Assembly: GCA_903892905.1 (NCBI GenBank)
Contig: CAITKI010000066.1
Coordinates: 1-59,057 of the forward strand
Direction of reading: 5' to 3'
Source of the DNA: an uncultured Candidatus Micrarchaeota archaeon
GTDB lineage: Archaea; Micrarchaeota; Micrarchaeia; Anstonellales; Anstonellaceae
DNA: 59,057 nucleotides
In this document: one piece after another, positions 10,189-38,009 of the stretch
Layout of the letters: each line of letters opens with the position of its first letter
Position numbering within the stretch: position 1 is the first letter of the stretch
The notes under the pieces: generated by a model
Told to the model about the DNA's origin: nothing
The model's input: only the letters and a program-made list of their open reading frames with translations
Database searches by the model: none
Translations under genes and position numbers: made by a program

Positions 10189-11505
10189 GAAGTCGTCCAG
10201 CTTTTCCTCTGGAATGGATGCGCCTGCGGCGATGTTGTGCCCGCCGCCCACGCCGCCCACCTGCGCGCAGCATTCCGAGAGTATTTTGCCCAAGTTCAGC
10301 CCCGCTTCCACAAGCCCGCGCGTGCCGCGGGTGGAGAGCTTTATTTTTCCAGGCGCCTCAAGCGAGAGGGCGAGTATTGGCTTTTTGCGCGAGCCTGCAA
10401 ACAGCATGCCTGCCACCACACCGATTATGCTATCAGGTATCACACCGCGAGCGTCCAGCAGGAGGAATTTGCCGGCATCCTGCGTGTTTTTCGAGGCGAA
10501 ATCTATGCCTGCGCGCAGGTTCTTGCGGTGCTCGGCAAGAAGTGATTGCGCCTCATCATAGGCGCCTGCGCGCTGCAGGCAGACCGACACTCCAAGCTCA
10601 GGCCGGTCGTTCCTGCCGCACGCGTTGAGGAGTGTGGAGAACTCGGATGCATCGCGAAGCAGCGTGCCTTGAGGCATGCGAAGCAGGTTGTATGTGTCGC
10701 CTACGAGGCGTTTTGCCGTTTCTGGCGAGGAGCGCATGGCAACGAGCTTTGCCAGCGAGGAGACGAGCGCGCGGCGCTCGGAAAATGTGAGGTCGGAGTA
10801 GGCGCGCCATTTCTCGCCGCTGCCGCCGTTGCCCTGCGCTGCGCCTTTTTGCTTCTGCTCGATTCCAAGCTCCTGCAGCAGCGCACTGCAAGCATCGTCC
10901 TGGCCCGTGATGCCAGGCAGGTAAGGCTCGTCGGCGTAGAGGAGAAATTGCTTCAGCGGGCGGCTGTTCCTGCCAAACAATAAAATGTCCTTTTCCACGG
11001 ATATTGCGCCCTGGGAAACTGCTTGCGACAGCATGAGCGCGTTGAGGCTGCGAAGCGGCGCCTGCACATCGCCTATTGCGCCCACGATGCCAAGCTCCAC
11101 AAAATCCTTGAAAACGAAATAGGCGCAGCCTGCCGCAGAGATGTCGGTGCCGCCGTCAAAGCCAAATTCGTGGGGATTTGCCTGCAGGTGCGCCTTGCTT
11201 TTCTGCTGGTGGTGGTCTATCACCACAACATTGCCTTGCAGGGAGTCTATCTCCGCCGTGCCGCTGCCAAGGTCGACAAAAATGATTTCCGGCTCCTGCG
11301 AGATGGAGGCGAGGAATTCTGCGTCCAGCTTGCGCACTGACTGCGCACGGAAAGGCTTGCCCATTTTTTCAAGCGAGCCGCAGACAATGGAGCCGGAGGT
11401 GATGCCGTCGCAGTCATAGTGGTGCACCACCAACGGTGCGCGCATCGCCCCTATTGCCTCTCGTGCCTCTGCGCAGCGCGCGAAAAAGCCCTGCTCGTTT
11501 CCCAT
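10162..11505 (-). CDS. DHH-family phosphoesterase, archaeal RecJ/GAN-like
   Basis: DHH motifs VVHHYDCDGITSG, VFVDLG, VVIDHHQ and DHHA1-type GGGHNIAAGA. ATG confirmed at 11505. Confidence 0.85.
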   Translation of the reverse strand: MGNEQGFFARCAEAREAIGAMRAPLVVHHYDCDGITSGSIVCGSLEKMGKPFRAQSVRKLDAEFLASISQEPEIIFVDLGSGTAEIDSLQGNVVVIDHHQQKSKAHLQANPHEFGFDGGTDISAAGCAYFVFKDFVELGIVGAIGDVQAPLRSLNALMLSQAVSQGAISVEKDILLFGRNSRPLKQFLLYADEPYLPGITGQDDACSALLQELGIEQKQKGAAQGNGGSGEKWRAYSDLTFSERRALVSSLAKLVAMRSSPETAKRLVGDTYNLLRMPQGTLLRDASEFSTLLNACGRNDRPELGVSVCLQRAGAYDEAQSLLAEHRKNLRAGIDFASKNTQDAGKFLLLDARGVIPDSIIGVVAGMLFAGSRKKPILALSLEAPGKIKLSTRGTRGLVEAGLNLGKILSECCAQVGGVGGGHNIAAGASIPEEKLDDFLKEFSARL

Positions 11506-17397: not shown

Positions 17398-17413
17398 AAA
17401 TGAGATTGGAGAG

Positions 17414-17506
17414 CGGGCCCAGTGGGATTCGAACCCACGACACGTGGATGGCTCTGCGCGTTCGCGCATAAGAGTCCACTGCTCTACCAAGCTGAGCTAT
17501 GGGCCC
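17414..17506 (-). tRNA. tRNA-Lys(CUU) with 19-nt canonical intron
   Basis: Minus strand reads GGGCCCA TA GCTC..GAGC A GTGGA CTCTTA[TGCGCGAACGCGCAGAGCC]A TCCAC GTGTC GTGGG TTCGAAT CCCAC TGGGCCC G. The intron at 37/38 folds as bulge-helix-bulge: CUCU/AGAG central 4-bp helix, GCGC-GAAC-GCGC outer helix. Confidence 0.9.
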
Positions 17507-21626: not shown

Positions 21627-22247
21627 TCAAACTGGCGGCATGCATTTCACAATCCAATCCCTGCCAATCTGCTTTTTTGTTATTTGCTGGCCCTCAATGT
21701 AGGTAATGTACTCAAAGCCAAGTGACTTGTAGTCAAGCGTGCCTGGCGATGCGCTGGAGTTCTGGCAGATTGAGGATGCACCGCCAATATAAGGACCTGT
21801 TGACGTGCCTGTTATTGCGACAATATGCCAACCGCAAGCAGTGCCAAACAGGCTGGACGATGCAAAATACTTCTCTTCTCCTGGTCCAAGGTAAAAGTAA
21901 TCGCTGATGCTTTTGGTGCCCGCTGCCCCTGCGCAACTAGCGCCATAAAACTGTATTATGCTTGTGCCATCTCCGCCTACTATCTTTGTTATCCTTATTG
22001 GCTGCACGCCGTTGTTCCTAAGTCTCAAATAAAGATATGTGTCTCCACTTACAGAATACGCTCTCGCCCCACTCTCAACAATCGAAATGGGCGTTGCGCT
22101 TTGCCAATACATCTGCGACTGTGTTATCTGCGAATCCGACGCCATCCCCGGGAAAAAGCCGAGCAAAGCAACACTTACGAGCGCTACGATTAGGACAACG
22201 GCGAGTAGAACAAGATACTCCGTAGCCCCCTGCGCGCGTAGTTGCAT
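21627..22247 (-). CDS. class III signal peptide pilin-like protein, paralog 1 of a 3-member family
   Basis: MQLRAQGATEYLVLLAVVLIVALVSVALLGFFPG. The N-terminal about 55 aa and C-terminal about 50 aa (ICQNS.ASPGTLDYKSLGFEYI.Y..GQQITKKQ.G.DWIVKCMPP) are shared with 31100-31948 and 33830-34678. ATG confirmed at 22247. Confidence 0.8.
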   Translation of the reverse strand: MQLRAQGATEYLVLLAVVLIVALVSVALLGFFPGMASDSQITQSQMYWQSATPISIVESGARAYSVSGDTYLYLRLRNNGVQPIRITKIVGGDGTSIIQFYGASCAGAAGTKSISDYFYLGPGEEKYFASSSLFGTACGWHIVAITGTSTGPYIGGASSICQNSSASPGTLDYKSLGFEYITYIEGQQITKKQIGRDWIVKCMPPV

Positions 22248-22256
22248 GCCTATTGC

Positions 22257-22280
22257 GGGGGGGGGGGCGGAACTTTTATA
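22257..22280 (-). promoter_or_regulatory. pilin promoter: TATA (tataaaag on minus strand, 22273-22280) and 11-nt homopolymer (G11 on plus strand, 22257-22267)
   Basis: Minus strand reads tataaaagttccg-C11-gcaataggcATG. The TATA is 26 nt from the ATG. The same promoter is found at 34679-34708 with C9. Confidence 0.6.
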
Positions 22281-22290
22281 CATATCGTCT

Positions 22291-23561
22291 TTACATGTCA
22301 ATTTCACTCAGCAAGGGAAGTCAAATCCACTGGCATCCTACTTCCGAAACCTTCATAAGCAAAATAATTGATAATAAAACTATGAAAATGAGAACGTATC
22401 GTTTCAGAATATATCCTTCAAAAGCGCAGGAGAAGCAGATGTGCCAACACCTCTGGCTAGCAAAGAATCTGTGGAATGACCTCCTCGAACATAGCAAAGA
22501 GCTGTACAGAAACTTTGATAAGTTTCCAACAAGAAACTCATTGCAATTGATGGTCAAGGACACCGGCATGTTCTCACAAACATCCCAAGAGATAGCCCAT
22601 CGTGTTGAAAATGGCATCTGGAGATATATGAAGCTTAGGAAAGCCGGAAATAAAAAAGCGGGCTTTCCGCGCTTTAGATCCGCTGATAGAATGAAAAGCC
22701 TCAACTATCCGCAATTTGGTTTCTTCCTTGAAAAGAAACTCAAGGTAAATCCATTTGGAGAAATTCCTATTGTGCGGCACAGAGAGGTAAACGGCAAAAT
22801 AAAGACGCTGACACTCAAAAGAGAGGCATCTGGAAAGTGGTTTGCTTGTTTTGCAGTTGAAGAACCCCCTGCCATCAGGCTGGCGAACGGTGGCTCGAGG
22901 ATAGGTATTGACCTTGGATTGAGGGTATTGGCAACCCTTTCCAACGGTTCAAAGATAAACAATCCCAGGCATATTAGAAAGCACCAGGAGAAAATCGCCT
23001 TCCTACAGAGACTAAGTAATAGGAAAAAGAAAGGAGGAAAAAACAGAGTAAGGGCTAAGCAGAAAGTTGCCGTTGAGTTTGAGAAGCTTAAGAACGTAAG
23101 AAGGGACTTTCTGCACAAGCTATCAAAAAATCTAGTCGATTCATATTCTTTCATTGCCCTGGAAGACCTGGCATCGCAGGAGCTTGCCGAGCAGAACTTC
23201 GGCAAGCAGATATATGATGCTGGTTGGGGCGAATTGGCGGACATGCTGCGCTACAAGGCTGAAAGCGCTGGTTGCGAGATCATGTTTGTCAATCCAAAGG
23301 ATACGACAAAAACATGCTGCATTTGTGGAAATATGGCGGATATGCCACTGGCAGTTCGGATATATGACTGCCACAACTGCGGCAATCATATGGATAGGGA
23401 TTTAAACGCAGCATATAACATACTCAAAAGAGCTACTGCCGGATCGGCAGAAAGTAACGCTTGTGGAGATGTCTCAAAAAAGACGTCTGTGAAACAGGAA
23501 GCCATAGCCTCGCCATCGGGCAGGTTAGGGCAGTTCACAACCTTACAGCCACTATCCTAAC
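22291..23561 (+). mobile_element. IS200/IS605-family tnpB-only (IS1341-like) element; ends not defined
   Basis: tnpB ORF without tnpA; lower GC than flanks. The left limit is bounded by the pilin promoter shared with paralog 3 (ends about 22288). The right limit is bounded by the PIN gene ATG at 23562. Subterminal inverted repeat ggaagt..acttcc at about 22316-22345. Confidence 0.55.
22382..23560 (+). CDS. tnpB: RNA-guided endonuclease TnpB (OrfB_IS605)
   Basis: N-terminus MKMRTYRFRIYPSKAQEKQM; RuvC motifs IGIDLGL, IALEDL, MDRDLNAAYNI; zinc finger CCICGN...CHNCGN; C-terminal tail NACGD..SVKQEA typical of the region that overlaps the omega-RNA. Confidence 0.9.
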   Translation: MKMRTYRFRIYPSKAQEKQMCQHLWLAKNLWNDLLEHSKELYRNFDKFPTRNSLQLMVKDTGMFSQTSQEIAHRVENGIWRYMKLRKAGNKKAGFPRFRSADRMKSLNYPQFGFFLEKKLKVNPFGEIPIVRHREVNGKIKTLTLKREASGKWFACFAVEEPPAIRLANGGSRIGIDLGLRVLATLSNGSKINNPRHIRKHQEKIAFLQRLSNRKKKGGKNRVRAKQKVAVEFEKLKNVRRDFLHKLSKNLVDSYSFIALEDLASQELAEQNFGKQIYDAGWGELADMLRYKAESAGCEIMFVNPKDTTKTCCICGNMADMPLAVRIYDCHNCGNHMDRDLNAAYNILKRATAGSAESNACGDVSKKTSVKQEAIASPSGRLGQFTTLQPLS

Positions 23562-29773: not shown

Positions 29774-31096
29774 ATGGCAAAGGCAAAATCCCCCAAACCG
29801 CCATCTTCGGAAGCGAAAGTTGGCGACTCAATCTCCGTCTCAAGCGAATCCGGCGGGCACAAGGGCATTCTCCTCCCCTCCAACAATCCTGATGCGATTG
29901 CCATCAAGCTCCCGTCAGGCTACAACATCGGAATAAGGAAGGAAAGCATCAAAAAAATGGAAGTGCTTGAGGCAGGCAAGCCTCCATCTTCGGCAGCGCC
30001 TTCCAAGAAAGCCCAGGCGCCAGCAAAGGACTTCCTATCCATCCTCGGCTGCGGCGGCACCATTGCCTCCAGAATCGACTACCGCACAGGCGCAGTGGAT
30101 GCAGCAACGTCCCCGCAGGAGCTGGTGGATGCATTTGCGCATCTTTCAAAAAAGCCGCTGCGCGCAAAATCGCTATTCTCAATATCATCCGAGGACACCA
30201 CGCACATCCACTGGCAGAAAATCGCGCAGGCTGCCGCAGACGAGATAAAGGATGGCGCGCAGGGCGTGGTGATAACGCACGGCACCGACACCATGTCATA
30301 TTCCTCCGCCGCGCTTTCCTTCATGCTGCAAAATCTTCCCTGCCCTGTGATTTTCACAGGCAGCCAGCGAAGCTCGGACAGAAGCTCGTCAGACGCGCTG
30401 CTCAACATGCAGGCGTCGCTCCTTGCCGCGGGCTCCGACCTGTCGGGCGTCTTCATCTGCATGCACGAAAACCTCTCGGACGATTCCTGCCTATTGCATT
30501 TCGGCGCAAAAGTGAGGAAAATGCACACCTCGCGCCGCGATGCCTTCCGCTCCATCAACTGCAGGCCGGCGGCGCGCGTGCTGCCCCTTCAGGGCAAGTT
30601 CGAGAAAATTTCCCAGCTCGCGCCCCCCAGAAACACTGGCAAGCTCGCGCTTGACACCAAAATAAACCCCAACGTGGCGCTCATTTACTCCTACCCTGGC
30701 ATCAAGCCTGAGATGCTCGCCTCGCTTTCAAAATACGAAGGTGTGGTGATTGCAGGCACAGGGCTTGGGCACGTGCCGTCGAACACATCCAACGACTTGG
30801 ACGCAGTGCCTGTCATCAAGGAAATCTCAGAGCTCATAGCATCAGGCATTCCTGTGGTAATCGCGCCACAGACCATTTACGGCAGGATAAACCTCAACGT
30901 CTATTCCTCCGGTCGCGTGCTGCGCGAAGCAGGCGCCATCGGGCACCTCTGTGACTTCACGCCCGAGGCGGCGTATGTGAAGCTCATGTGGGTGCTTGCG
31001 CACGAGAAGAAAATGGCGCGCGTGCGGGAAATGATGGAAAAGAGCATCGCAGGCGAGATTTCCGGGCGCTCGGAAATCGTCGATTTTGACTTCTAA
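29774..31096 (+). CDS. gatD: Glu-tRNA(Gln) amidotransferase subunit D
   Basis: Asparaginase-type motifs ILGCGGTIAS and VITHGTDTM with the N-terminal GatD-specific domain. ATG confirmed at 29774. Confidence 0.9.
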   Translation: MAKAKSPKPPSSEAKVGDSISVSSESGGHKGILLPSNNPDAIAIKLPSGYNIGIRKESIKKMEVLEAGKPPSSAAPSKKAQAPAKDFLSILGCGGTIASRIDYRTGAVDAATSPQELVDAFAHLSKKPLRAKSLFSISSEDTTHIHWQKIAQAAADEIKDGAQGVVITHGTDTMSYSSAALSFMLQNLPCPVIFTGSQRSSDRSSSDALLNMQASLLAAGSDLSGVFICMHENLSDDSCLLHFGAKVRKMHTSRRDAFRSINCRPAARVLPLQGKFEKISQLAPPRNTGKLALDTKINPNVALIYSYPGIKPEMLASLSKYEGVVIAGTGLGHVPSNTSNDLDAVPVIKEISELIASGIPVVIAPQTIYGRINLNVYSSGRVLREAGAIGHLCDFTPEAAYVKLMWVLAHEKKMARVREMMEKSIAGEISGRSEIVDFDF

Positions 31097-31099
31097 TCC

Positions 31100-31948
31100 G
31101 TGGTGATTGTTGTGGTTTGCTTGGGTAAGGCTGGACAAGGCGCGATTGAGTCGTCTTCACTCTGCTCGACGACTGCTCGCTCCCTAGGACAGGGAGCGAT
31201 TGAGTTGGCGCCTGCGCCAATGTGCTTTTTGCTAGGCAAAAAGCATCAGGCACAGAGCTGCGGCTCTGTGCTGACTGCAGGCACCTTGAAAGGTCAAGGT
31301 GCCATACGCTCGTCCTCTGGGGCGACCTATTGCCCCTTGCATGGGCAAGGGGCAACCGAATATCTCGTTCTTCTTGCAGTCGTGCTCATTGTCGCGCTCG
31401 TTTCCGTTGCCCTGCTTGGCTTCTTCCCGGGGATGGCTTCCGACTCGCAAATCACGCAGTCGCAGATGTACTGGAAAAGCGCCAGCCCGATTTCGATTGT
31501 GGAGAGCGGGGCGAAATACAAAGCCTCGGACGGGTATACGTATCTGTACTTGCGGCTTAGAAACACGGGGTCATATCCAATAAGATTAACCGCCCTGGTT
31601 GGCGGGGACGGGACGAAAATAACCCAGTATTTTGGCACAAATTGCGGCGTATCGGGCTATGCCAACATCAGCGATAACTTCTATTTTGGGCCCGGCGAGG
31701 AAAAATATTTTGCGTATATAAATGCCTTCGGATTGCCTTGCGATTTGCAGGTCGCTGCGCGAACCACGGCATCCACTAGCTATAGCGTGGGTGGCGCATC
31801 ATCGATTTGCCAGAATTCCACTGCCTCGCCAGGCACACTCGACTATAAATCATTTGGCTTCGAATATATCGTGTACATCGATGGGCAGCAGATAACCAAA
31901 AAACAAGTTGGTATGGATTGGATAGTAAAATGCATGCCTCCGATTTAA
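31100..31948 (+). CDS. class III signal peptide pilin-like protein, paralog 2, with about 80-codon in-frame upstream extension
   Basis: Core GQGATEYLVLLAVVLIVALVSVALLGFFPG begins at about 31343. The frame is open back to a GTG 3 nt after the gatD stop. No ATG or own promoter is present. A TTG at 31337 would give MHGQGATEYL. Confidence 0.7.
   Translation: MVIVVVCLGKAGQGAIESSSLCSTTARSLGQGAIELAPAPMCFLLGKKHQAQSCGSVLTAGTLKGQGAIRSSSGATYCPLHGQGATEYLVLLAVVLIVALVSVALLGFFPGMASDSQITQSQMYWKSASPISIVESGAKYKASDGYTYLYLRLRNTGSYPIRLTALVGGDGTKITQYFGTNCGVSGYANISDNFYFGPGEEKYFAYINAFGLPCDLQVAARTTASTSYSVGGASSICQNSTASPGTLDYKSFGFEYIVYIDGQQITKKQVGMDWIVKCMPPI
31149..31355 (+). repeat. array of seven perfect hairpins
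   Basis: Hand-verified stems: 31149-31174 (7 bp), 31177-31199 (9 bp), 31205-31220 (6 bp), 31223-31245 (10 bp), 31250-31271 (9 bp), 31280-31303 (9 bp), 31330-31355 (11 bp). Four G-Q-G-A coding units start at 31133, 31187, 31292 and 31343. Confidence 0.85.
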
Positions 31949-33829
31949 GTGATTGCCATGATGTGCGGGCTTGAAATACACCAGCGATTGTCCGGCAGGA
32001 AGCTGTTCTGCTCCTGCGTGCCGCCGGAAGCGGGCGAAGCGGCAGCCGCAGGGGGCGTTGATGGCGAGGCAGAATCCGAAAAATTCACGCGCCGCCTCCA
32101 CACTGTCCGCTCCGAGCTTGGCGAAGTGGACGCGGCATCCGCGGCAGAGGCAAGCCGCAGCAGGACATTCTCCTACAGCGCGCCCCTCCCTTCCACCTGC
32201 CTGGTGGAATCCGACGAGGAGCCGCCGCATACCCTCTCGCCCCAAGCGCTGCACGCCACGCTCACCATCTGCTCCCTCCTCTCTTCAACGCCTGTGGACG
32301 AGCTTTACGTGATGCGCAAGAACGTGATTGACGGCAGCAACACCTCGGGCTTCCAGCGCACTGCTATCGCAGGCATTGGCGGCTCAATTGCCACGCCGTC
32401 AGGCAAGCTTCCGATACAAACGGTTTGCATAGAGGAGGAAAGCGCAGGCATAGTTGACGGCAAGGAAGGCTCTGCGCATTACGACCTCTCGCGCCTTGGC
32501 ATCCCGCTTGTTGAAATCGCAACCTCGCCCGACTTGCGCTCAGGCAAGGAGGCACAGGAAGCCGCGCTTGCAATCGGCACCATGCTTCGCAAGACAGGCA
32601 TGGTGAGCCGCGGCATAGGTACCATCCGCCAGGACCTCAACATTTCCATCCCCCAAGGCGCGCGCGTGGAAATAAAGGGCGTGCAGGACCTCTCGCTAAT
32701 CGCGCTCACAGTGGACCTGGAGGTGGCTCGCCAGGAAAAGTTCCTCGCAGTGCTAAACGAGGCAAAATCCCGCCTCGGCGGCAGCCTCCCCCCGGAAAGC
32801 ATATTTGACGTGACCGACACATTCTCAGCCACGCAGTGCCAGATGGTGGCAAAGGCGCTTCGCGGGAAAGCGCGCGTGCTCGCGCTTCCCCTCCCGAAAT
32901 ACGCAGGCCTGCTTGGGGCCGAAATCTCCCCCAATCGCCGCTTTGGCAGCGAGCTTGCGGACTATGCGCGCGCGTTTGGCGTGAAGGGTCTGGTGCACTC
33001 GGACGAGAGCATGGAAAAATACGGCTTTTCGGACGACGAAATCTCCGAGCTTCGCATGGCGCTCTCGCTCGGCAAGGATGAGGCCTTCCTGCTGGTGGTC
33101 GCAGAGGAAAACAAGGCGCGCGCAGCGCTTTCAGCCGCGTTTGCCCGCGCGACAAACTTCACAATAATCGAAGAGACGCGCCGCGCCAACCCTGATGGCA
33201 CCTCGAGCTACATGCGCCCATTGCCTGGCCGCGCGCGCATGTACCCTGAGACCGACGTGGAGCCAATCGCAATCACGCCCGAAATGCTCTCCGCCGCAAA
33301 GAAATCCGCAAGCGCCATCCAGGCGGCGGAAGAGGAGGCAAAGGATGCGCTTTCCTCGCTTCCCGCAGAGCTTGCAGCGCAGTTGGCCGCCGCAAAGGGG
33401 CTCCTTTCACACTCGCCCTCGCACAAGAGCCGCGCGCCAACCCCCGAGCTTTCAGTTTACCTGTCCGCGCTCGAGGCGGGGATCGACAGCAAGCTTATTG
33501 CCTCCACAATCACAAACTCGCTCGGGTCCCTCAAGCGCGAAGGCGCAAATACGCGCGCGCTCGACGAGGAACGGCTCCTCTCTGCGCTTGCAGCCTGCCA
33601 GGAAGGCGTTTTCGCGCGCGCGGCGATGCAGGATGTGCTGCGCGAAATGTGCAAGGAAAGCGCACTCGCGCCTGCAGATGCAGCGCGCAAGCTTTCGCTT
33701 GAAAAAATATCCGGCTCTTCCCTTGCCAAGCTCATCAATGAAGAGAAGCTCGATTTGGCGGGATTGATGGCAAAATACCGCCTGCGCGTGGATGCAGCAG
33801 AAGCGAGCGAACTTCTCAAGAAAAAATAG
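31949..33829 (+). CDS. gatE: Glu-tRNA(Gln) amidotransferase subunit E
   Basis: N-terminal CGLEIHQRL signature; GatB/E core; C-terminal helical tail. A GTG at 31949 directly follows the pilin stop; ATGs at 31958 and 31961 are alternatives. Confidence 0.9.
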   Translation: MIAMMCGLEIHQRLSGRKLFCSCVPPEAGEAAAAGGVDGEAESEKFTRRLHTVRSELGEVDAASAAEASRSRTFSYSAPLPSTCLVESDEEPPHTLSPQALHATLTICSLLSSTPVDELYVMRKNVIDGSNTSGFQRTAIAGIGGSIATPSGKLPIQTVCIEEESAGIVDGKEGSAHYDLSRLGIPLVEIATSPDLRSGKEAQEAALAIGTMLRKTGMVSRGIGTIRQDLNISIPQGARVEIKGVQDLSLIALTVDLEVARQEKFLAVLNEAKSRLGGSLPPESIFDVTDTFSATQCQMVAKALRGKARVLALPLPKYAGLLGAEISPNRRFGSELADYARAFGVKGLVHSDESMEKYGFSDDEISELRMALSLGKDEAFLLVVAEENKARAALSAAFARATNFTIIEETRRANPDGTSSYMRPLPGRARMYPETDVEPIAITPEMLSAAKKSASAIQAAEEEAKDALSSLPAELAAQLAAAKGLLSHSPSHKSRAPTPELSVYLSALEAGIDSKLIASTITNSLGSLKREGANTRALDEERLLSALAACQEGVFARAAMQDVLREMCKESALAPADAARKLSLEKISGSSLAKLINEEKLDLAGLMAKYRLRVDAAEASELLKKK

Positions 33830-34678
33830 TTAGAATGGTGGTCCGCACTTCACTATCCACTCCTTTCCAATCTGCCTTTTTGTTATCTGCTGTCCCTCCA
33901 CATACTGGATATACTCAAAGCCAAGCGTTTTGTAATCAAGCGTTCCTGGCGACGTGGTGGAGTTCTGGCATACTGAAGCGGCGCCTCGGACATTATTGTT
34001 TGAACTAGTGCCGCCAACATACGAGGCTATGTACCTATTGCAAGCCAACCCATACCAGCTGCCACCAACACCAATATATTTCTCTTCACCCGGCGCAAGA
34101 TAGTAGTAGTCACTGAAATTCGCATATGGGTTGGGCAGCCCGCAAGAGCCATCTGCTTCAACATAAGGCGCCTTTCCGCCATCGTTTCCAATCATGCCAG
34201 TTATCCTTATCGGGTACATTCCTGCATTCCTTACTAACAGGTAAGGAAACGTATTGCCACTATTCGTTGATGCCCTCGCTGCGCTTTCCACAATCGAAAT
34301 CGGGCTTGCGCTTTTCCAATACATTTGTGATTGCGTTATCTGCGCGTCGCTTGCCATTCCTGGGAAGAAGCCGAGTAGAGCCACGCTTACAAGAGCTACA
34401 ATTAGCACGACTGCTAAGAGAACCAAGTACTCAGTGGCGCCTTGGCCAACCAAGGCGCCTGCAGTTGCACCCGAGTGCAACTCAATCGCACCCTGCCCGA
34501 GCTGGGGACCGATTTGTCGGCGCACCGAGCTACTTGGCGGCGCTCCGCCAAGTGCTCCACTTGCGCCGCGGCGCAAGTCGGACAAATGGTCCACCCGAGC
34601 CGCGGCTCGAGTCGGACGATAAGTTGTGCCGCGGCACAACTGTGTGGCACCTTGACCTGCACGCGCGCGTAGTTGCAT
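33830..34678 (-). CDS. class III signal peptide pilin-like protein, paralog 3, with 70-codon insertion in the leader
   Basis: MQLRARAGQGAT-[70 aa]-EYLVLLAVVLIVALVSVALLGFFPG. Promoter and first codons match paralog 1. The stop codon abuts the gatE stop with no spacer. Confidence 0.75.
   Translation of the reverse strand: MQLRARAGQGATQLCRGTTYRPTRAAARVDHLSDLRRGASGALGGAPPSSSVRRQIGPQLGQGAIELHSGATAGALVGQGATEYLVLLAVVLIVALVSVALLGFFPGMASDAQITQSQMYWKSASPISIVESAARASTNSGNTFPYLLVRNAGMYPIRITGMIGNDGGKAPYVEADGSCGLPNPYANFSDYYYLAPGEEKYIGVGGSWYGLACNRYIASYVGGTSSNNNVRGAASVCQNSTTSPGTLDYKTLGFEYIQYVEGQQITKRQIGKEWIVKCGPPF
34436..34641 (-). repeat. array of six perfect hairpins/palindromes plus an enclosing long-range stem
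   Basis: Hand-verified: 34436-34459 (10 bp), 34463-34482 (8 bp), 34532-34553 (9 bp), 34559-34578 (20-nt palindrome), 34596-34609 (14-nt palindrome), 34622-34641 (20-nt palindrome). A 12-bp stem pairs 34506-34518 with 34581-34592. Three palindromes share a gCCGCGGc core. Confidence 0.85.
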
Positions 34679-34687
34679 GCCTATTGC

Positions 34688-34708
34688 GGGGGGGGGAGAA
34701 ACTTTTAA
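34688..34708 (-). promoter_or_regulatory. pilin promoter copy 2: TATA (ttaaaag on minus strand, 34702-34708) and 9-nt homopolymer (G9 on plus strand, 34688-34696)
   Basis: Minus strand reads ttaaaagtttct-C9-gcaataggcATG. The TATA is 24 nt from the ATG at 34678. Confidence 0.6.
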
Positions 34709-34783
34709 TCATATCTCGCGCTTTTTGGGAAAAGCGCGCGTTTCAAGGCAAGGGTTATATTCTTCATAGCCGCAATCACATCC

Positions 34784-35077
34784 ATGAACAAACCGTCGGC
34801 AATCGAAAAGAAGCTCTCCCTCCACAAGCGCCAGCTTTGTTCGCAATTCAACGTGAGCCAGATAGGGGTTTTCGGCTCATACGCACGCGGCGAGCAGCGG
34901 AAAGGGAGCGACATCGACATTTTGGTCGAGTTTTCCAATGCGCCCGGCCTTCTCGGGTTCATCAGGCTTGAAAACAGGCTGGAAGAAATACTTGGAGGGA
35001 AAGTCGACCTTGTGAGGAAAAAGGCAATCCGCCCCGAATTTAGGCAGGCAATACTTTCCGAGGTAGTATACGTATGA
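34784..35077 (+). CDS. mntA: minimal nucleotidyltransferase (MNT) antitoxin
   Basis: GVFGSYARGEQRKGSDIDILVEF motif; 97 aa; ATGA overlap with the next gene. Confidence 0.85.
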   Translation: MNKPSAIEKKLSLHKRQLCSQFNVSQIGVFGSYARGEQRKGSDIDILVEFSNAPGLLGFIRLENRLEEILGGKVDLVRKKAIRPEFRQAILSEVVYV

Positions 35078-35448
35078 AAAGGAGCCACGCAATATTCCTT
35101 CAGGACATTTTCGAGGCAATTGGCAAAATAGACGAGTTTGTGGGCAAACGAAGCTTCGAGGAATTTTGCAGTGACGAGGTGCTTCTCAACGCAGTCGTCC
35201 ACAAAATAGAGATAATCGGTGAGGCGGCAAAGGGGGTTCCCTCGGAAGTGAGGGCACGCCACCCGAAAATCCCATGGGCAGAGATGTCAAAGACGCGCGA
35301 TAAGTTAATACACAGCTACTTTGGCGTGGACAACGAAATAATCTGGAAGATTGTGAAAGAGGAGCTCCCTCCCTTGAAAAGCATAATTGCCGAGGCGGCA
35401 AAGGCGGAAGCGGCTCGCGAGCAGAAGGAAAAAAACAAAACAGCATAA
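35074..35448 (+). CDS. hepT: HEPN (DUF86) toxin
   Basis: Rx4H motif in TRDKLIHSYFGVD; 124 aa. Confidence 0.85.
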   Translation: MKRSHAIFLQDIFEAIGKIDEFVGKRSFEEFCSDEVLLNAVVHKIEIIGEAAKGVPSEVRARHPKIPWAEMSKTRDKLIHSYFGVDNEIIWKIVKEELPPLKSIIAEAAKAEAAREQKEKNKTA

Positions 35449-36488: not shown

Positions 36489-38009
36489 ATGTGCGGCATG
36501 CTCTGCGCGCAGAAAGTGCTTTCAGGGCAAATGGCGGCACGCGACTTCCTTTTCAGGCCGCCTGAGCCTTCGCCAGACATGCTGCTATCATCCCCATCAG
36601 AATCAATTTACGTCGGAAAGACAAAATACCTGGGCGTCCCCTTCTTCTGGAACAGCAAAAAACTCCTGAATCCTCACCTGTGCGTGGTGGGCACCACGGG
36701 CTCAGGCAAATCCTATTTCGTGAAGACGTTCATCACGCGCGCCAGCCTCACGCTTGGCTCCTCTGCGCTCATACTGGACTGGGCAGGCGAGTATGCCGAC
36801 TGGGTAAGGGGCGCCGGAGGGCAGGTGGTGGCATTTGGCGAGGAGGGCATCAACTTGTTGGACCTTGCAGGAAGCTCGCCGCACGCGCGCATGACGCAGG
36901 TGATGGACGCGCTTCGCATACTCACGGACATCTCGCACTCAAACGCGCAATGCCGCCTCACCGAAGACGCGATAGAGAAAGCGTATGTTTCTGCCGGCTT
37001 CAAGATGAAAGCGGCAGCTGGTGATGGCAGGCGCAGGATGCCCACGCTGGAAAGCGTGCAGCGCATATTGGAGCGCCAGGCAAAGCGAAGCGCGGACGCG
37101 GCCGAGGCTGCAAGGCGCATCAAGAACCTCCTTCTCTCCTCGGGCGGCTCGTTCACTGCGTCCACCCTGCCGCTTTCCTCCCTTCTTTCAGGATTGGTAT
37201 GCGTGGACCTGCACTCGCTGCCGACAGAGACGCTGCGCTCGCTTGCTGGCCTTTCCATCCTCCAGTTCGTAAAAGAAAGCATGCGCGCCAGCCAGCGCGC
37301 GCAAAGCCCGCAGCCGCATCTGTTCGTGGTGGTGGACGAGGCATGGAAAATCGCATCAGACGAGCGCTCGGATGTGGTCTCCATTGTGCGCGAGGGCAGG
37401 AAATACGGCTTTGGCCTCATCGTGGCAAGCCAGAACCCGACCGACGTTCACAAGAGCATATTCTCCAACGCAGGCACCATGATGCTCTTCCGCCTCACGC
37501 ATGCGCCTGAGCGCAGCTATGTGCGCTCCTCGCTTTCGTACTCTGACTTCTACGAGGAGGAATCGCATTCGCTTTCTGTTGGCCAGGCGCTTGTGCACCT
37601 GGAATTTTCGAAGCCTTCGGCGTGCCCGCGCAACTTCATACTGCGCAAGGTGGACGGCGAGGAACTATTGGTGACGCTTCATTTGGGGGGTGGTGGCATG
37701 GACCTGGAATTCGAGCGCAATGAGCTTTCCTCGCGCCTGCTCTCGTTCGGGCTGACAGACGCGCAAACGCGCAGCATGCTTGCCGAATTCGAGCGGCGCA
37801 GCTTTTCGCTTTCGGCATCTGAATTTTCGGCGCTGCTCGAGAAATTCGGGCACAGCCGCGCATCCGCAATCTCGCTTTTGCGCGAGCTTGGCGCGTCCGA
37901 GCGCGACCTCCTGTCGGCGCTTGCGCCTGACTCGCGCCACCAAGGCGAGGCAATCGCGATTCTGAAAGGCGATGCTGCCACGAAAGGAAAGAAGGGGAAG
38001 AGGCGATGA
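36489..38009 (+). CDS. HerA/FtsK-superfamily (DUF87-like) P-loop ATPase
   Basis: Walker A VVGTTGSGKSYF, Walker B LFVVVDEAWK, arginine-finger region REGRKYGFGLIVASQNP. C-terminal about 110 aa form a helical repeat region. Confidence 0.75.
   Translation: MCGMLCAQKVLSGQMAARDFLFRPPEPSPDMLLSSPSESIYVGKTKYLGVPFFWNSKKLLNPHLCVVGTTGSGKSYFVKTFITRASLTLGSSALILDWAGEYADWVRGAGGQVVAFGEEGINLLDLAGSSPHARMTQVMDALRILTDISHSNAQCRLTEDAIEKAYVSAGFKMKAAAGDGRRRMPTLESVQRILERQAKRSADAAEAARRIKNLLLSSGGSFTASTLPLSSLLSGLVCVDLHSLPTETLRSLAGLSILQFVKESMRASQRAQSPQPHLFVVVDEAWKIASDERSDVVSIVREGRKYGFGLIVASQNPTDVHKSIFSNAGTMMLFRLTHAPERSYVRSSLSYSDFYEEESHSLSVGQALVHLEFSKPSACPRNFILRKVDGEELLVTLHLGGGGMDLEFERNELSSRLLSFGLTDAQTRSMLAEFERRSFSLSASEFSALLEKFGHSRASAISLLRELGASERDLLSALAPDSRHQGEAIAILKGDAATKGKKGKRR

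Follow-up and report, generated by a model that had tools for sequence, protein, structure and literature searches.

A nested array of in-frame double-hairpin elements in the leader of a Micrarchaeota prepilin gene

Two hairpin arrays lie in the leader-coding regions of type IV pilin genes on a 59,057-nt contig of an uncultured Candidatus Micrarchaeota archaeon (CAITKI010000066.1, assembly GCA_903892905.1; this whole stretch is called the window below). The window holds three pilin paralogs with a class III signal peptide (..[RK][AG]|QGATEYLVLLAV..), termed pA, pB and pC. The segment inserted in pC, the main subject here, reads as a composite of four double-hairpin blocks of 51 or 54 nt, one nested in another, and not as the single element of about 206 nt that an initial annotation had proposed. 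These blocks are probably self-copying mini-elements, each made of two hairpins and kept in frame, that reside in the prepilin leader. Observed are their anatomy, their restriction to pilin leaders, the open frame, the placement of promoters for the upstream ATG and a strictly Watson-Crick covariation. Also observed are the copying of identical blocks among diverged paralogs, nested insertion, insertion in either orientation, and sites with and without an insert.

Type IV prepilins are recognised by a short basic leader that is cut after Gly or Ala, by Gln or another residue at +1, Glu at +5 and a stretch of about 20 hydrophobic residues. The product of pA shows these hallmarks (MQLRA|QGATEYLVLLAVVLIVALVSVALLGFF, with Glu at +5), and its motif is unchanged across 30 aligned homologs. 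The family to which the three paralogs belong is found in Candidatus Micrarchaeota/Micrarchaeia genomes (1416 matches, with many paralogs per genome), and its typical member has a leader of about 6 residues. No Pfam family was matched when the window proteins were tested for pilin membership; one pilin homolog carries PF01917. The genes pC and pA have in common a TATA-like box, a poly-C tract and GCAATAGGC, followed by ATGCAACTACGCGCGC. After ATGCAACTACGCGCGC, pA runs straight into QGATEYL and is free of modules, whereas pC has 210 extra nucleotides between the first QGA-coding copy (34646-34654) and the copy adjacent to TEYL (34436-34444). The in-frame insertion into the leader of a pilin paralog, as initially annotated, is thereby borne out, and public gene calls give the full 282-aa protein (P0121) for pC. 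The insertion could not be dated by orthologs, since even the best-matching homolog shares just 80% identity with the mature pC protein and has a short leader.

Along the coding strand of pC follow the leader, the resident QGA copy, a type 1 module, an inverted double-hairpin element (DHE-1) with another such element nested in it, a further QGA copy, a terminal type 2 module and TEYL (Table 1). The type 1 half has the layout of other type 1 units and gives a truncated match of 38.8 bits (34610-34654, - strand) to R1, a covariance model of the unit. The two hairpins of DHE-1 in pC are ACTCGAGCC-GC-GGCTCGGGT and GGACCATTTGTC...GACAAATCGGTCC, and the element is 92-100% identical (blastn) to DHE-1 of the related locus L118. 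The nested DHE-3 is 85% identical over 52 nt to the inverted DHE-1 of L168/L139, with compensated changes in the stems. Because DHE-3 is nested in DHE-1, the 'long-range stem' noticed earlier (34506-34518 with 34581-34592) is the second hairpin of DHE-1, whose loop received another double-hairpin element; the stem exists, with one bulge, and encloses this nested element. A collinear array that lacks the nested 54 nt and has DHE-1 unsplit is found in L129/L189, which read DHLS|VRRQIG where pC reads DHLS-DLRRGASGALGGAPPSSS-VRRQIG. The PQLG-QGA ending that pC shows at 34487-34506 occurs in L129 and L125 too. The terminal module, one of 68 distinct units in the alignment A2 (see below), has its inner hairpin at 34463-34482 and its second hairpin, H2, at 34436-34459, the 3' arm of which forms the GQGA cleavage-site codons; its R1 match (34433-34495, - strand) scores 77.9 bits (E = 1.4e-18).

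Table 1. Coordinates of the pilin genes and of the parts of their hairpin arrays in the window.
Feature	Coordinates	Strand	Remarks
pA	22247..21627	-	paralog 1 of the initial annotation
pB	31100..31948	+	between gatD and gatE
pB sister array	31136..31354	+	54-nt module (31145-31198), 51-nt type 2 module with nested 54-nt DHE-2 (31221-31274), terminal 51-nt module
pC	34678..33830	-	paralog 3 of the initial annotation; carries the array
TATA-like box TTAAAAG of pC	34702..34708	-	followed by C9 tract (34688-34696) and GCAATAGGC
Start codon and canonical short leader M-Q-L-R-A-R-A-G of pC	34655..34678	-	ATG at 34676-34678
First QGA-coding copy CAA GGT GCC	34646..34654	-	resident, directly 5' of the insertion point QGA|T
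5' half of 'TQ...TY' (type 1) module	34619..34645	-	ACA CAG, inner hairpin AGTTGTGCC-GC-GGCACAACT (34622-34641), then TAT
DHE-1, 54-nt double-hairpin element	34507..34617	-	inverted; in two parts, 34581-34617 and 34507-34528
DHE-3, nested 54-nt double-hairpin element CGACTTGCGCCGCGGCGCAAGTGGAGCACTTGGCGGAGCGCCGCCAAGTAGCTC	34527..34580	-	in loop of second hairpin of DHE-1; edges ambiguous by about 2 nt
Decayed 3' end (H2 remnant) of first module, CCCCAGCTCGGG, with QGA copy CAG GGT GCG	34487..34506	-	QGA copy at 34487-34495
Intact terminal 51-nt (17-codon) type 2 module	34436..34486	-	I-E-L-H-S-G-A-T-A-G-A-L-V-G-Q-G-A
Mature pilin coding sequence (QGATEYLVLLAV...) through stop	33830..34444	-	

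The initial annotation had suggested the same class for the array at 31100-31355, in pB, and this is supported; R1 matches there lie at 31136-31201 (47.8 bits) and 31295-31357 (75.3 bits). The unit 'cagggNgcgattgagttg plus a hairpin' that it saw in both arrays is indeed shared and can be refined to the start of a defined 51-nt module. The QGA copies of pB start at 31136, 31190, 31295 and 31346. From first to last QGA, both arrays measure exactly 210 nt, not 206-207 nt as first given, since four such blocks add up to this length in either case (in pB, 54 + (51 + nested 54) + 51). The imperfect 15-nt duplication said to bracket the pC insertion (GGTCAAGGTGCCACA / GGCCAAGGCGCCACT) is present, with 12 of 15 positions identical and the three differences all at third codon positions, and turns out not to be a target duplication. 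The downstream QGA is part of the module and pairs perfectly with its own upstream arm; the upstream copy has unrelated wobble bases.

All hairpins and palindromes initially listed for pC are present. They comprise perfect hairpins at 34436-34459 (10 bp, loop of 4), 34463-34482 (8 bp) and 34532-34553 (9 bp), 20-nt palindromes at 34559-34578 and 34622-34641, an imperfect one (CGAGCCGCGGCTCG) at 34593-34612 and three occurrences of GCCGCGGC; those centred on CCGCGG are perfect through the centre. With perfect hairpins defined by a stem of at least 8 bp and a loop of at most 6 nt, 10 of the 24 in the window are concentrated in 385 nt that precede pB and pC (binomial P = 2.5e-16). Compared to dinucleotide shuffles, the region 34425-34680 reaches fold z values of -5.2 as sense RNA, -5.3 as antisense RNA and -5.4 with DNA parameters, nearly equal on both strands and with either parameter set. 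The corresponding values are -0.5 for the first 256 nt of the module-free pA and -7.0 for the pB array. Rfam gave no relevant match in 30900-35000 at E <= 1, and no tRNA-like calls fell in the pC and pB array region.

The basic module, 51 nt or 17 codons long, lies precisely at the Ala(+3)/Thr(+4) codon boundary of Q-G-A|T-E-Y-L. Its parts are a 4-nt junction (ATTG or ACAC), an 8-bp inner hairpin (AGTYG NNN / NNN CRACT, with a loop that is mostly TCTG, TCTA or TGCG), a 3-nt junction (GCW or TAT) and H2 of 10-11 bp. The 3' arm of H2 is CAAGGNGCN and supplies the codons Q-G-A, the 5' arm is its reverse complement, and positions -2/-1, encoded by the loop, are x-(G/A) without exception. As this 3' arm is a fresh copy of the (G/A)-Q-G-A codons, the insert rebuilds the prepilin-peptidase site beside TEYL, and the odd residues 'CPL', 'GTL' or 'GAL' before the last QGA result from translation of the complementary H2 arm.

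Covariation was assessed on the alignment A2 of 68 distinct 51-nt units. Cells of the alignment that belong to stems are paired in 95.8% of cases (74.1% after shuffling), and 262 of them are changed on both sides (80 after shuffling). The covariation score amounts to 0.536 compared to 0.132 in shuffled alignments; none of 500 shuffles scored as high, and slid registers reached at most 0.13. In the inner stem all eight pairs covary, and each of the four pair types occurs at the three central positions. Transversion swaps between CG and GC and between UA and AU are common, with almost no one-sided intermediates. The 61 non-Watson-Crick cells among 1224 stem cells are 10 G-U, 22 A-C and 29 other, a G-U share as by chance. 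The complementarity of the modules is of the DNA kind, strictly Watson-Crick. Two further ideas on the structure were rejected. One is a switch between alternative helices, in which the anti-QGA arm would pair with the upstream or the downstream QGA; it is ruled out because the upstream copy does not pair with this arm, matching it at the two wobble columns in 8-9 of 68 units. The other is that true double-stranded palindromes without a loop are the general rule; self-complementary loops occur in 4/68 inner hairpins and 1/68 H2, about as by chance.

In an unbiased sample of 97 pilin gene starts, one genome per species, additional QGA copies, in frame and one to four in number, are present in 21 (22%), and a pattern scan of metagenomes, whose pattern requires H2, added 117 loci (L078 onward). 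R1, run with filters off, gave significant matches in the 59-kb window only in the two leader arrays, namely four on the sense strand and two weaker antisense echoes (best elsewhere, E = 0.06). Over 368 kb of genome loci it matched pilin starts and extended leaders, plus one weak, truncated match at a locus end. The H2 core occurs 118 times in leaders, compared to 7 weak, chance-like 5-bp matches elsewhere in 1.05 Mb. As the R1 and H2-core scans place the modules in pilin leaders, a dispersed repeat of the repetitive extragenic palindromic (REP) or miniature inverted-repeat transposable element type was discarded. No module matches were found in IMG/VR viral contigs, and no prior description of such modules in Micrarchaeota pilins was found in the literature. 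A partial DHE-1 in L035 (2139-2173), about 330 nt upstream of a pilin start and outside any recognisable leader, is the sole DHE-like piece seen in such a place.

Several features of the arrays bear on whether they are translated. Distances between successive QGA copies are multiples of three in 117/125 cases; the spacing is 51 nt in 71/125 and otherwise 48, 54 or 57 nt or a block sum (99-111 or 156-162 nt), with L101 and L178 as the only genuine frame exceptions. Across 100 inserts (7290 nt) there are 2 stops in frame 0, 48 in +1 and 81 in +2, and the numbers of distinct units (n = 68) that carry a stop are 1, 16 and 36, respectively. Among the 39 module-bearing genes with a recognisable TATA, 33 have the start of the hexamer 28-30 nt ahead of the upstream ATG. 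In module-free genes the mode of this distance is 28-29 nt and the spread is broader. The median distance from the leader ATG to the first Q is 6 codons in module-bearing and 7 codons in module-free genes. The lengths of 3n, the scarcity of stops in frame 0 and the promoter placement thus indicate that the modules are read through as part of the leader peptide. In archaeal promoters, TATA is centred near -26, and transcription would therefore start at or next to the upstream ATG and produce a leaderless mRNA. The pC mRNA, too, is predicted to be leaderless or nearly so and to be translated from the upstream ATG through the modules.

A few loci deviate from this scheme. In L101 (~10925-10977) and L178 (- strand), a 52-nt unit corresponds to the 57-nt module of L014, whose inner loop TCGCT-TCGCT-T has lost one CGCTT; the upstream ATG is thereby out of the pilin frame, and the unit may represent a slippage on/off switch or a pseudogene. 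In some modules, such as those of L001, L044 and L102, the TTG of the anti-QGA arm is replaced by ATG ('CCC ATG'). In L102 (- strand, ~562) the unit upstream of this ATG carries a TAG and seems to be a decayed module turned 5' untranslated region (5' UTR) with a new internal start.

Identical modules occur in genes that are otherwise diverged. Third-position identity over the 33 codons that follow module pairs of at least 95% identity is 0.33-0.67, compared to a family baseline of 0.42. Two sets of genes, of four and five members, show an identical block that opens immediately behind the resident GCN (Ala) codon and closes with a CAAGGNGCN of its own, while wobble bases vary directly on both flanks, including the resident QGA copy. 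Such sharp edges mark the module as a discrete block placed at QGA|T that brings with it the QGA adjacent to TEYL. Spread by long-tract gene conversion is disfavoured, since the synonymous sites flanking identical modules are saturated.

The double-hairpin elements behave as blocks in their own right. Units of 105 nt are composed of a 51-nt module and a further 54-nt double-hairpin element. Copies of DHE-1 that are 90-95% identical run one way in L118, L124, L139, L141 and L168 and the other way in L129/L189, L125/L144 and pC; the element is open in nearly all six frames. Filled and empty sites can be compared directly: the host module of L118 equals the module of L093/L150 except for one base and the 54-nt insert, and pC and L129/L189 differ by the nested 54 nt. 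The elements enter existing hairpins at their base or in their loop, either way round, which leads to nested arrays, and the arrays mix module types rather than repeat one. DHE-2 in pB (31221-31274, + strand) contains TGCTTTTTGC-TAG-GCAAAAAGCA, a T5/A5 hairpin resembling archaeal oligo-T terminator signals. Hairpins similar to this one are also seen at a distance from pilin starts, in the loci L122, L148, L009 and L109, and the window has another at 34717-34738, between pC and the nucleotidyltransferase gene that diverges from it.

These patterns are best accommodated by elements that copy themselves. The modules would be tolerated because each rebuilds the (G/A)-QGA cleavage codons and presumably leaves with the leader. 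In pC, a leader of 78 residues instead of 5 would be cut by prepilin peptidase before Q34444, at the rebuilt (G/A)|QGATEY, and its removal would therefore leave the mature pilin unchanged and render the insert close to neutral. Spread would take place at the DNA level and independently of a dedicated enzyme, through copy-choice (template switching) or short-patch recombination. Copying would start and end at short homology between the 3' end of the element and the 5' flank of the target; the 51-nt module would use 9 nt of such homology, the double-hairpin elements 1-3 nt. Hairpins would act as polymerase stall sites, arm-to-arm correction would keep the stems perfect and selection would remove only the copies that break the frame. 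The copying mechanism and any function are inferred.

Some points weigh against this explanation. The inner loops are conserved (TCTG/TCTA/TGCG in 46/68 units) beside hypervariable stem pairs, which is unexpected for purely neutral DNA and hints at a recognition factor or a function. Sharp edges, reproducible insertion points and conserved loops would suit a site- or structure-specific enzyme at least as well; a search of about 1 Mb revealed none, neither in the window nor in association with the modules. A palindrome flanked by 9-nt direct repeats is expected to be lost easily, and its persistence across distant lineages suggests drive or benefit. The statistics of the metagenome loci do not describe an unbiased sample, since the pattern requires H2 and many loci come from related samples. 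Finally, that the mRNA is leaderless, that the modules are translated and that the leader is cleaved off are all deductions from sequence.

The main rival to self-copying elements is a functional nucleic-acid structure. Selection would then maintain the hairpins as RNA or DNA structures near the start of a leaderless pilin mRNA, within its first 30-250 nt, where they would influence translation, pausing of ribosomes, targeting to the membrane or the lifetime of the mRNA, with module number setting the expression of each paralog and usefulness accounting for the spread. This is possible, although not favoured. Very strong covariation, conserved loops and persistence in distant Micrarchaeota lineages, at 22% of genes, speak in its favour. 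If the mRNA is leaderless, the removable leader would be the sole place for a 5' structure, and the slip of a 5-nt repeat (57 to 52 nt, L101/L178) would switch the frame. A selected RNA structure is, however, difficult to reconcile with G-U pairs that are not enriched (10 of the 61 non-Watson-Crick cells), an antisense strand that is equally stable, a DHE-1 that occurs in both orientations and nests inside other hairpins, and a haphazard composition of the arrays. Moreover, upstream units decay, H2 being 87% Watson-Crick there compared to 95% in terminal units (with six upstream units only), and the first hairpin, about 35 nt from the 5' end, would be too far away to cap the mRNA against 5' exonucleases.

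Loop conservation, constant insertion points and sharp edges also hint at an unrecognised class of archaeal cassette, mobile or regulatory, in which a dedicated structure-specific factor would add, invert, nest and delete modules at the cleavage codons. It would set or switch expression or processing across the repertoire of more than 30 pilin genes of an episymbiotic DPANN archaeon. Such a device for phase or repertoire variation, embedded in a cleavable leader peptide, would be of a new kind; at present the idea is doubtful.

Unlikely, in turn, is transposition of the hairpins by an enzyme, in which non-autonomous elements, similar to REP sequences or palindrome-associated transposable elements (PATEs), are moved as single-stranded hairpins by a Y1/HUH transposase or another structure-specific recombinase, its gene lying at some other place in the genome, with QGA|T as target. 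Such an enzyme would explain why block edges are sharp and flanks are not co-converted, why DHE-1 is found in both orientations, why loops are conserved and why insertion points are reproducible, the 51-nt module entering at QGA|T and DHE-1, in type 1 as in type 2 modules, at the 3' base (..AC|T) of the inner hairpin. A TnpB gene adjoins pA and an IS200-type TnpA is encoded in the related contig L184. Yet Y1 elements use targets of 4-5 nt and should scatter, while the modules are confined to pilin leaders. The Y1/RAYT-type enzyme (RAYT, REP-associated tyrosine transposase) that the initial annotation suggested looking for was not found in the window, a weak negative as the query sequence was approximate. 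The hairpins that flank tnpA in L184 (CCCCACAGC.., CCACTGC..) are unlike the modules, and the ends of the TnpB element of the window have no perfect hairpins of at least 8 bp. On these grounds, of which the Y1 search is a weak one, neither the adjacent TnpB nor a Y1 transposase was connected with the modules.

Removal or skipping of the insert, which would result in a normal short leader, is very improbable. Archaeal bulge-helix-bulge introns have two 3-nt bulges with a 4-bp helix between them, formed from the splice-site sequences, and Micrarchaeota are known for a permissive splicing endonuclease. The yeast mitochondrial 'byps' and T4 gene 60 exemplify ribosomal bypassing, which here would lead from the first QGA to the last. 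Identical QGA motifs flank each module like matched take-off and landing sites, and 51 nt is close to the 50-nt gap of gene 60. If the insert were removed or bypassed, frame and stops would be irrelevant, yet lengths are 3n and frame 0 is almost free of stops. No stop follows the putative take-off codon, and the Ala codons of the two copies often differ, as in pC (GCG and GCC). The upstream QGA is not paired with the module (Watson-Crick at the wobble columns in the same 8-9 of 68 units), no helix joins the ends of the insert and there is consequently no bulge-helix-bulge motif. Conservation of frame and stops together with the lack of boundary pairing led to the rejection of intron and bypass alike. 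Least credible of all is a neutral 5' UTR with a start at the TTG 'buried' in the hairpin 34436-34459 (MVG-QGATEYL), since, although every module has an in-frame TTG (ATG in some relatives, and in L102, with its upstream stop, the internal ATG must serve) three codons before Q, this TTG is forced by complementarity to CAA (Gln) and nothing marks it as a start: no Shine-Dalgarno-like sequence precedes it, the frame upstream of it is conserved and free of stops, the promoter is positioned for the upstream ATG and public gene callers give the full-length P0121.

Self-copying mini-elements of this kind have parallels in other genomes. Rickettsia palindromic elements (RPEs) lie in frame, are translated, form hairpins, are tolerated in permissive parts of proteins and are open in several frames. 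Modules of the pC type are likewise hairpin repeats in frame within open reading frames, as judged from frame, stop and structure data, and would be translated. They differ from RPEs, which measure 100-150 bp, occur in many unrelated genes as well as in intergenic DNA and are bacterial. The modules are 51-54 nt long, archaeal and bound to one class of site, they rebuild cleavage codons and nest, and they have no sequence similarity to RPEs. Their only host is the QGATEYL pilin superfamily rather than many unrelated genes. RPEs were reportedly described by Ogata et al. in 2000.

Double-hairpin elements are also known from mitochondria. Those of the chytrid Allomyces, the GC clusters of yeast (PMC4478555) and the hairpin elements of sponges (PMC2800124) share with the modules two hairpins, a size of tens of nucleotides, both orientations, sometimes in-frame coding, filled and empty sites and the lack of an encoded enzyme. 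They are organellar, dispersed in intergenic, rRNA and intron sequence and tied to no fixed codon junction. The modules bear the hallmarks of these elements, a likeness of architecture and behaviour that implies no homology. Together with RPEs, the fungal mitochondrial double-hairpin elements and GC clusters come closest to the modules in behaviour. Perfect inverted repeats with DNA-type complementarity in translated sequence are a further parallel, seen in mitochondrial genes of Nematomorpha, where coding palindromes of up to 284 bp lie in conserved enzymes (PMC6649704). There, both arms encode conserved protein, and the modules are short and placed in a leader that is presumably discarded.

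Ribosomal bypass inserts offer a likeness of another sort. Those of T4 gene 60 and of the Magnusiomyces 'byps' (10.1101/2022.08.31.505936) are mobile hairpin inserts of about 50 nt with matching flanking codons, too. Bypass gaps, however, carry stops and need not be 3n, whereas the frame of the modules is conserved and free of stops, which makes read-through the simpler explanation. REPs are extragenic, of high copy number and marked by GTAG/CGTC tags, and PATEs share their ends with a resident insertion sequence (IS). The modules lie only inside the leader reading frames of pilin genes, and their hairpins begin with AGTYG or ACTTG instead of GTAG/CGTC. In the approximately 1 Mb examined, the hairpins beside the only tnpA found (L184) are unrelated, and the TnpB element of the window has no comparable hairpins. 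Still, REPs with bacterial interspersed mosaic elements and RAYT, and the IS200/IS605-derived PATEs (PMC3733652), are hairpin-based miniature repeats as well, and the handling suggested for them, single-stranded and structure-specific, would be similar.

The modules belong to the class of in-frame palindromic mini-elements. They form a real and statistically solid feature, set apart by the archaeal host, the one codon junction of one gene superfamily, the rebuilt protease site and the nesting. The probability that a regulatory function or a dedicated factor stands behind them is not negligible. Miniature hairpin elements within coding sequence, hitherto known mainly from Rickettsia and mitochondria, thus exist in Archaea too. 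Insertion into a presumably discarded leader, combined with cleavage-site codons of their own, would be a route to harmlessness. For annotation, the modules explain the odd long N-termini in about a fifth of Micrarchaeota pilin genes, and R1 recognises them. More than 100 natural variants provide a test case for the upkeep of palindromes, by template-switch correction or selection, and for hairpin-specific enzymes in DPANN archaea. If the modules modulate pilin expression, they would bear on variation of the host-contact surface of episymbiotic archaea.

The promoters and surroundings of the pilin genes yielded some additional observations. Between TATA and ATG lies a run of C, of nine residues in pC (34688-34696) and eleven in pA (22257-22267), both on the - strand, and this difference of 2 nt gives a TATA-ATG spacing of 30 nt in pC and 32 nt in pA. 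Runs of 8-10 C occupy the corresponding place in L031, L038, L164 and L091, and the promoter tract is a candidate site of slipped-strand phase variation. A single pair of near-identical genes differing in their leaders came to light, namely tandem copies in L038. This locus has three tandem pilin genes at 1253, 1884 and 2515, the first two with coding sequences 97% identical. The poly-C promoter and a 51-nt module are confined to the first copy, whereas the second and third lack a module and carry the leader MGNKA.

The TnpB gene (OrfB_IS605 and Cas12f1-like TNB domain) at 22382-23560 (+ strand) is divergent from pA and adjoins its promoter, with no tnpA close by and no module-like hairpins at the ends of the element. 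In the interval 29777-33829, pB and its hairpin array are wedged between gatD and gatE; the open frame of pB starts 4 nt past the gatD stop and has no clear TATA box. The genes pC and gatE stand back to back, with stops at 33830 and 33829. ARAGORN reported a 94-nt tRNA with undetermined anticodon at 17413-17506 (- strand), possibly one with an intron. Directly upstream of pC and in divergent orientation, the region 34784-35448 (+ strand) encodes an NTP_transf_2 nucleotidyltransferase and a HepT-like RNase, a toxin-antitoxin pair, and a HerA/FtsK-like ATPase (DUF87, AAA_10) is encoded about 2 kb from pC at 36489-38009 (+ strand).

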